Origin: Escherichia coli
GTDB taxonomy: Bacteria > Pseudomonadota > Gammaproteobacteria > Enterobacterales > Enterobacteriaceae
Assembly: GCF_003334765.1 (NCBI RefSeq)
Contig: NZ_QOWT01000011.1
Length of the DNA: 64,000 bases
Strand: one strand, 5' to 3'
The position numbers and the translations under genes were made by a program. This document shows, in pieces, positions 47,073 through 47,318 of this stretch. A model generated the notes under the pieces. It was not told the origin of the DNA and ran no database searches. It was given only the letters and a program-made list of their open reading frames with translations. Each line of letters opens with the position of its first letter. The first letter of the stretch is position 1.

Positions 47073-47090
47073 TTCTTGCGAGTTTCAGAA

Positions 47091-47117
47091 AAGGGGGCCT
47101 GAGTGGCCCCTTTTTTC
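47091..47117 (+). terminator. rpsO intrinsic terminator
   Basis: GGGGGCCTGAGTGGCCCC hairpin followed by TTTTTT. Confidence 0.65.
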
Positions 47118-47318
47118 AAGCTGACGGCAGCAATTCACTGGAAACTAATGTATTGTTGCTATGAATGATCTTCCGTTGCAGAGGTTCGCGCGGCTAATGA
47201 GAGGCTTTACCCACATAGAGCTGGGTTAGGGTTGTCATTAGTCGCGAGGATGCGCAGAAGATCGGGTATTAACACCAGTGCCGTAAGGTACTGTCTAAGA
47301 AAGAGAAAGGATATTACA

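Follow-up and report, generated by a model that had tools for sequence, protein, structure and literature searches.

The spacer between the genes rpsO and pnp of Escherichia coli raises the question of which control functions are accommodated in this short interval, on which of the two strands they reside, and where exactly each of them begins and ends. The DNA analyzed (hereafter, the window) is a stretch of 64,000 nucleotides of contig NZ_QOWT01000011.1 from the E. coli assembly GCF_003334765.1. A first-pass annotation of this window, made from the sequence letters, had proposed the rpsO terminator, a leader of approximately 200 nt containing the RNase III-cleaved hairpin of PNPase autoregulation, a TTG start codon for pnp and an antisense SraG RNA, the ends of which it left open.

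Comparison of window positions 45987-49987 with the chromosome of E. coli K-12 MG1655 (NC_000913.3, 3308500-3312500, in reverse orientation) revealed 0 mismatches over 4001 nt. Coordinates were accordingly converted by the relation w = 47319 - (r - 3311168), where w denotes the window position and r the position in NC_000913.3. The region was found by megablast in all 5426 of the complete E. coli genomes (5426/5426), with an identity of at least 99% in 5413 of them, and the rpsO-pnp spacer was located at exactly 47073-47318, corresponding to 246 nt. Since the sequence is identical to that of MG1655, the elements of which were characterized experimentally (PMC5029454, PMC5371410), the results published for K-12 apply directly to the window. 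The locus is, with great confidence, the E. coli K-12 rpsO-pnp intergenic control region, featuring two overlapping functions in a convergent/antisense arrangement. Every element of the spacer is already known, and the locus is real but ordinary. As a discovery, it matters little; it represents a classic model of RNase III-initiated mRNA decay, enzyme autoregulation and cis-antisense control. The gain of the present analysis lies in the exact coordinates obtained for all elements (Table 1) and in the comparative confirmation of the leader hairpin.

Table 1. Elements of the rpsO-pnp region in window coordinates. Arrows mark elements read on the minus strand, from the higher to the lower position.
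Element	Position	Strand	Basis and remarks
P1 promoter of rpsO, TTGCGA-17-TAGAAT	46666-46694	+	Consensus promoter scan; precedes the S15 leader
S15 leader (RF00114), rpsO translational autoregulation pseudoknot	46745-46859	+	Rfam, 117.6 bits
rpsO (S15, 89 aa)	46803-47072	+	ORF list; TAA stop codon at 47070-47072
Bidirectional intrinsic terminator (T1 of rpsO on +; SraG terminator on -)	47088-47116	both	Sequence, folding
P2 region, internal pnp promoter, TSS probably near 47161 (+/-3)	47121-47161	+	Inferred
Long hairpin R, RNase III substrate in PNPase autoregulation, 97 nt	47167-47263	+	MFE fold, covariation
Near-invariant core of hairpin R, both arms	47185-47253	+	Columns at least 90% identical in alignment A1
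SraG (psrO), 216-nt primary transcript opposite the pnp leader	47304->47089	-	RefSeq ncRNA b4449
Second small hairpin, stem AGUGCC/GGUACU, loop GUAA	47277-47292	+	MFE pairs; between hairpin R and SD
pnp Shine-Dalgarno (SD) AAAGGA	47306-47311	+	7 nt upstream of the start codon
SraG promoter region PSraG (putative boxes)	47342->47311	-	Sequence reading; -10 function from literature
pnp start codon TTG (UUG)	47319-47321	+	RefSeq start agrees
pnp (711-aa PNPase), CDS	47319-49454	+	RefSeq NP_417633.4 coordinates mapped onto the window

At the upstream end of the spacer, the first-pass annotation had placed the rpsO terminator at 47091-47117, and a stem-loop followed by a T-run was indeed found inside this interval, folding on both strands (-19.9 kcal/mol on the plus strand and -15.7 kcal/mol on the minus strand). 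The sequence GGGGGCC-TGAGT-GGCCCCC forms a GC stem of 6-7 bp (47093-47099/47105-47111) around a 5-nt loop (47100-47104), in which GC pairs connect 47094-47099 with 47105-47110 and a G.U pair is added between 47093 and 47111. The stem is flanked by T6 at 47111-47116 on the plus strand and by A4 at 47089-47092, representing U4 on the minus strand, and a simple pattern scan reported the terminator on the minus strand (47110..47094). Read in this direction, the 3' end of SraG consists of GGGGCC ACUCA GGCCCC followed by C-UUUU, the annotated end at 47089 being the last U. Fontaine 2016 (PMC5029454) described a single bidirectional terminator serving as T1 of rpsO and as the terminator of SraG, and the intrinsic terminator acts in both directions. 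In other species, the terminator was detected in 67 out of 106 cases, with an A-tract in 44, a survey that is too crude to judge whether bidirectionality is conserved.

Downstream of the terminator, the extent of the pnp leader depends on the promoter used. A consensus promoter scan of 46600-47500 found only P1 of rpsO, and neither P2 nor PSraG reached the threshold (9/12), so that the placement of both relies on published mapping and arithmetic. For P2, Fontaine 2016 (PMC5029454) reported that the RNase III cuts RIII1 and RIII2 are located 39 and 77 nt from its start. Combined with probable cuts near 47199/47200 and 47237/47238, these distances place the transcription start near 47161, from where the leader would measure approximately 158 nt. 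Candidate hexamers of P2 are CTGACG at 47121-47126 and ACTAAT/TAATGT at 47144-47151, and the sequence AACTAATGTATTGTTGCT within the P2 region was found to be conserved within the Enterobacteriaceae. The leader of approximately 200 nt in the first-pass annotation is therefore correct for P1 read-through transcripts only, in which 201 nt extend from the terminator to the TTG, and is too long for transcripts originating from P2.

Folding of the leader (47118-47330) yielded -73.8 kcal/mol, compared with -55.4 +/- 4.3 kcal/mol for shuffled sequences (z -4.3, 0/200), and revealed the stable long hairpin expected from the first-pass annotation, referred to here as hairpin R. On its own, hairpin R reached -46.1 kcal/mol (z -5.8, 0/200 shuffles), with 37 pairs and an apical loop at 47214-47221. 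The minus-strand fold of the same segment amounted to -33.4 kcal/mol only, because five G.U pairs turn into A.C mismatches.

RNase III probably cuts hairpin R near 47199/47200 and 47237/47238, within about +/-3 nt, as deduced from the helix register (i+j = 94435), a 2-nt 3' overhang and the published distances from P2. This placement agrees with two published observations. The fragment reaching from P1 to RIII1 was described to be 500 nt long (Fontaine 2016, PMC5029454), which, for a P1 -10 element ending at 46694, sets the fragment end near 47200. Furthermore, the strongest non-rRNA peak of the rnc/WT read ratio (3,782), reported at 3311286 ('psrO', affecting pnp) by Gordon et al. 2017 (PMC5371410), maps to window position 47201, inside hairpin R. 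Cleavage at two leader sites was shown in vivo and in vitro (PMC5029454); like PNPase autoregulation, it is taken from the literature. The RNase III-cleaved autoregulation hairpin of the first-pass annotation is thus backed by a stable fold and by cleavage and peak data published for the identical sequence.

According to the mechanism proposed for the plus strand, transcripts from P1 of rpsO would mostly end at the intrinsic terminator, while read-through and P2 transcripts would carry the leader, the hairpin of which would be cut by RNase III on both arms. PNPase would then strip the short 5' fragment still paired to the pnp mRNA, and removal of this fragment would expose the 5' end to RNase E and the GGA/SD pair to CsrA. 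The pnp mRNA would be destabilized and less translated, representing PNPase autoregulation. The operon layout P1-rpsO-T1-P2-leader-pnp is that of the known pnp autoregulation system, with no differences, and the same hairpin and the same UUG are featured in the work on leader autoregulation, as far as it is cited in PMC5029454 (Portier 1987; Jarrige 2001; Carzaniga 2009). Similar to the leaders of rnc, metY-nusA and proP (PMC5371410), the pnp leader contains a long 5'-UTR hairpin cut by RNase III, whereby a 5' stabilizer is lost and the downstream message decays faster. Unlike these leaders, pnp depends on PNPase, the protein it encodes, for removal of the remaining 5' fragment, and possesses a CsrA layer as well as a cis-antisense sRNA across the same hairpin.

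To follow the leader across the Enterobacterales, species-representative genomes were subjected to a DNA-pattern scan anchored in pnp codons 7-16, which lie outside the spacer. The scan yielded 120 loci with 105 usable spacers, and the plus strand of the spacer was more stable than the minus strand in 106 out of 106 species, E. coli counted. For the analysis of base pairing, the 175 nt before the pnp start of 79 sequences sharing less than 90% identity were aligned by means of MAFFT (alignment A1), and the E. coli MFE fold was projected onto this alignment. In the 79 Enterobacterales, 87.3% of the cells were paired under the projected fold, compared with 36-46% when the 3' partners were slid, and compensatory double changes were observed in 27 of the 43 pairs. 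The covariation score amounted to 0.235, compared with 0.149 +/- 0.005 for shuffled alignments (0/500) and 0.06-0.10 for slid ones. Application of RNAalifold to the MAFFT alignment recovered the invariant core helix only (23 pairs, with a covariation term of -1 kcal/mol), because a sequence-only aligner misaligns the variable apex and base. For this reason, the E. coli MFE fold was projected and accompanied by slid and shuffled controls. Base and apex of hairpin R were found to covary, a result depending on this projection, and the middle part is at least 90% invariant on both arms.

Hairpin R contains three conserved G.U pairs (73/79, 75/79 and 51/79 sequences), and over the whole hairpin, 381 G.U cells were counted vs. 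65 A.C cells. The excess of G.U over A.C, together with the three conserved G.U pairs, indicates that the structure is selected on the strand of the pnp mRNA. The fold of SraG is a weaker mirror image of the leader hairpin.

The arms of the near-invariant core read TTCGCGCGGCTAATGAGAG (47185-47203) and TTGTCATTAGTCGCGAGGATG (47233-47253); outside the core, the spacer is only about 50% identical across the 79 Enterobacterales. The degree of invariance suggests that the core is subject to more than the needs of base pairing, with stacked sequence constraints such as RNase III boxes, a CsrA GGA, PNPase/S1 binding or an antisense RNA. The GGA at 47249-47251 within the core is a candidate for the upstream CsrA site and would become exposed once RNase III and PNPase have processed the RNA. 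After processing, CsrA was described to bind two sites, one of them overlapping the SD (Park 2015, as far as cited by Fontaine 2016, PMC5029454).

At the downstream end of the spacer, the motif AAGGA of the pnp SD was 74-99% conserved in 110 species. The TTG proposed as the pnp start by the first-pass annotation agrees with the RefSeq start, with the SD spacing and with its own conservation, since TTG was found in 102 out of 105 Enterobacterales, GTG in the remaining 3 and ATG in 0. The 30S toeprint was mapped 15 nt from this UUG (Fontaine 2016, PMC5029454), a weak codon at which translation of pnp begins. The segment between the SD and the start, ATATTAT on the plus strand, is unusually conserved (62-100%), with an invariant A at position -3. 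Two open reading frames touching the spacer were discarded. An extended pnp frame of 740 aa from the TTG at 47232 is the mechanical outcome of taking the first start after a stop and conflicts with the annotated, toeprinted and conserved start. A minus-strand frame of 58 aa (47207-47383) is likewise mechanical ORF-finder output and starts upstream of the SraG transcription start.

On the minus strand, alignment to the annotated sraG gene allowed both ends of the antisense RNA to be placed. The gene sraG/psrO of MG1655 (b4449, NC_000913.3 3311183..3311398) maps to 47304->47089 with identical sequence and position; as in K-12, it runs antisense to the leader of pnp and has its terminator in common with rpsO. 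SraG thus resides between the rpsO stop at 47072 and the pnp start at 47319, on the strand opposite to both genes, and its overlap with the P2-derived pnp mRNA comprises about 47161-47304. The Rfam model RF00082 matched 47260->47089 on the minus strand with 164.3 bits (gathering score 50, E 5.4e-30, model positions 1-177/177). The antisense SraG anticipated in the spacer is therefore supported by a covariance match as well as by the b4449 annotation on identical sequence. The Rfam model represents the older 174-nt form only, which starts 42 nt further in, at about 47262, whereas the primary transcript runs 42-44 nt further, to 47304. By cRT-PCR, primary SraG was determined to be 216 nt long, with a T as its first nucleotide, 42 nt upstream of the former 5' end, and with its 3' end at the terminator (PMC5029454). 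On the minus strand, position 47304 is a T, and its distance from the SD is 2 nt. Transcription of SraG, which, like its effect, is known from the literature, was detected by Northern blots and cRT-PCR in the K-12 strains N3433 and MG1655 (PMC5029454).

In our reading of the sequence, the -10 element of PSraG would be contained in TGTAATAT (47318->47311), between the pnp SD and the TTG and 6-8 nt upstream of 47304, and the -35 element would fall within pnp codons 6-8, where a TTTACG-like sequence occurs at 47342->47337. PSraG would therefore be located partly outside the reported interval 47073-47318, as it would extend beyond the -10 element into the first pnp codons. Mutation of the -10 element was shown to abolish the 216-nt SraG, and this element was described as close to the SD without overlapping it (Fontaine 2016, PMC5029454). 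The same study mentioned a further minus-strand start, predicted within the coding region of pnp and 339 nt upstream of PSraG. This start corresponds to about 47643 in the window and could be a source of residual SraG-like RNA in PSraG mutants.

Regarding the effect of SraG, a shorter half-life of pnp mRNA, less PNPase and loss of the 30S toeprint at the UUG were reported for the full-length RNA and not for the 5'-truncated form SraG-S (PMC5029454). Cleavage of SraG by RNase III occurs at mirror-image sites, and in the SraG-pnp duplex, the enzyme uses new sites (PMC5029454). Without SraG, pnp mRNA and PNPase are 1.3-fold higher, and overexpression of SraG has an effect of approximately 2-fold (PMC5029454). 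According to the proposed mechanism, a weak promoter with its -10 element between the pnp SD and the UUG would drive the 216-nt SraG to the same terminator read backwards. With perfect complementarity to the leader that reaches to within 2 nt of the SD, SraG would block 30S binding, and the SraG-leader duplex would gain extra RNase III sites. PNPase would be lowered modestly (about 1.3-fold), SraG thus representing a fine-tuning layer. SraG resembles the cis-antisense systems SymR/symE, GadY/gadXW and AsflhD/flhD in its perfect complementarity to the leader, in the cleavage of the duplex by RNase III and in the occlusion of the ribosome-binding region. It differs from them in that it stops 2 nt short of the SD and represses only mildly. 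A further difference is that SraG, since it extends across a hairpin, is a mirror-image substrate of RNase III in its own right.

Between hairpin R and the SD, a second small hairpin is formed, for which double changes were observed in 5 of 6 pairs in the 79-sequence alignment A1. The equivalent segment of approximately 46 nt from 108 species had a mean folding energy of -13.3 kcal/mol and a mean z of -2.5, with 97% of the segments at or below -5 kcal/mol. Its structure is conserved and its sequence is not, the sequences being unrelated among the 108 species. The mirror image of this hairpin is located inside the 5' 42 nt of SraG, which are required for repression. It is conceivable, albeit rather improbable, that the second hairpin serves as a loop-loop ('kissing') nucleation site where SraG and the pnp leader first meet. 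If so, the failure of truncated SraG-S to repress, despite its pairing in vitro, would be accounted for. A second cause for the conservation of this hairpin would then be possible as well, beyond the sequence constraints fixing the invariant stem core on both arms.

Other interpretations of the two overlapping functions were considered. A very stable hairpin between a promoter and a gene could in principle serve mainly to attenuate or terminate transcription, or to block translation independently of a protein, instead of being an RNase III processing site. For hairpin R, this is extremely improbable: no U-run follows it (47264-47276 reads GGGTATTAACACC), its 3' end lies 43 nt before the SD, and neither the SD nor the start codon is sequestered in the MFE fold, for which reasons the attenuator/terminator reading was rejected. 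In addition, the RNase III-dependent read depletion peaks inside the hairpin (PMC5371410), and the two-site cleavage reported in vivo and in vitro (PMC5029454) speaks for processing. As regards SraG, its conservation might be explained entirely by the leader, the RNA itself being a by-product, that is, a low-level mirror transcript originating from a fortuitous AT-rich -10-like sequence and lacking a selected function. The conserved structure is optimized for the plus strand, as seen in the G.U and A.C counts (381 vs. 65) and in the folding energies (-46.1 vs. -33.4 kcal/mol). Moreover, the RF00082 model matched antisense between S15 and pnp in 15 out of 15 diverse genera (62-162 bits). Since the structure of this model corresponds to the conserved leader hairpin and the shared terminator in reverse complement, matches in other genera do not by themselves prove antisense transcription, which bears on the weight of an Rfam 'SraG' match as evidence for a functional sRNA there. 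SraG is also poorly expressed, its removal shifts PNPase by 1.3-fold only, and no growth phenotype was seen (PMC5029454). We nevertheless consider the by-product explanation unlikely. A point mutation in the -10 element not only abolishes SraG but also raises pnp mRNA and PNPase (PMC5029454), and only the full-length RNA abolishes the toeprint and shortens the pnp half-life (PMC5029454). Hfq binds SraG with a Kd of about 0.5 nM (PMC5029454), and the segment between SD and start that forms the -10 element is unusually conserved (62-100%), although translation could also account for the latter.

Another proposal is that SraG is mainly a trans-acting, chaperone-dependent sRNA with targets elsewhere and that its effect on pnp is secondary. 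SraG co-immunoprecipitates with Hfq and is bound tightly (Fontaine 2016, PMC5029454), it is mentioned in a ProQ paper, and SraG of Yersinia pseudotuberculosis was reported to repress the YPK_1206-1205 operon (according to the account given by Fontaine 2016, PMC5029454). The Yersinia target, however, has no homologue outside Yersinia (PMC5029454). For E. coli, no trans target emerged from microarrays, target prediction or Northern blots of 10 candidates (PMC5029454), and deletion of hfq left both the SraG level and its effect on pnp unchanged (PMC5029454). A primarily trans-acting role is thus very unlikely, and SraG is best regarded as a cis-antisense RNA acting on the pnp leader.

Insertions in the rpsO-pnp spacer of other species (L052, L075, L013/L030/L055, L098, L111, L079 and L022) were mostly located upstream of hairpin R, which they left intact. 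In Providencia (L052 and L075), a 123-nt ERIC-like element ending in ...CAACTTGAAGTATGACGA directly follows rpsO. Three Enterobacteriaceae carry an insertion of approximately 100 nt at the position of E. coli 47144, and in two Yersinia species (L098 and L111), insertions of 216 and 136 nt were found after the position of E. coli 47160. An exception is the endosymbiont Candidatus Hartigia (L022), in which extra sequence also interrupts the hairpin region.

Elsewhere in the window, a match to naRNA4 (RF02564) was obtained at 45162-45232 (+) in the gap upstream of rbfA, with 68.1 bits vs. a gathering score of 59.5. It was also present in E. albertii (positions 4039-4109 of locus L005) and is probably not an RNA gene of its own but a repeat of the REP/BIME type. 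Further Rfam elements, as expected for this part of the K-12 chromosome, were the greA leader (29555-29676, +), the sRNA ArcZ (7803-7910, -), the rimP leader (40363-40463, +) and two tRNAs (40198-40271 and 36329-36412, both +). Long stop-free frames on the minus strand were found at 43829-45544 (571 aa), 48042-49517 (491 aa) and 47295-47951 (218 aa). They lie opposite highly expressed genes (pnp and the gene upstream of rbfA) and look like shadow ORFs of codon bias, not genes.
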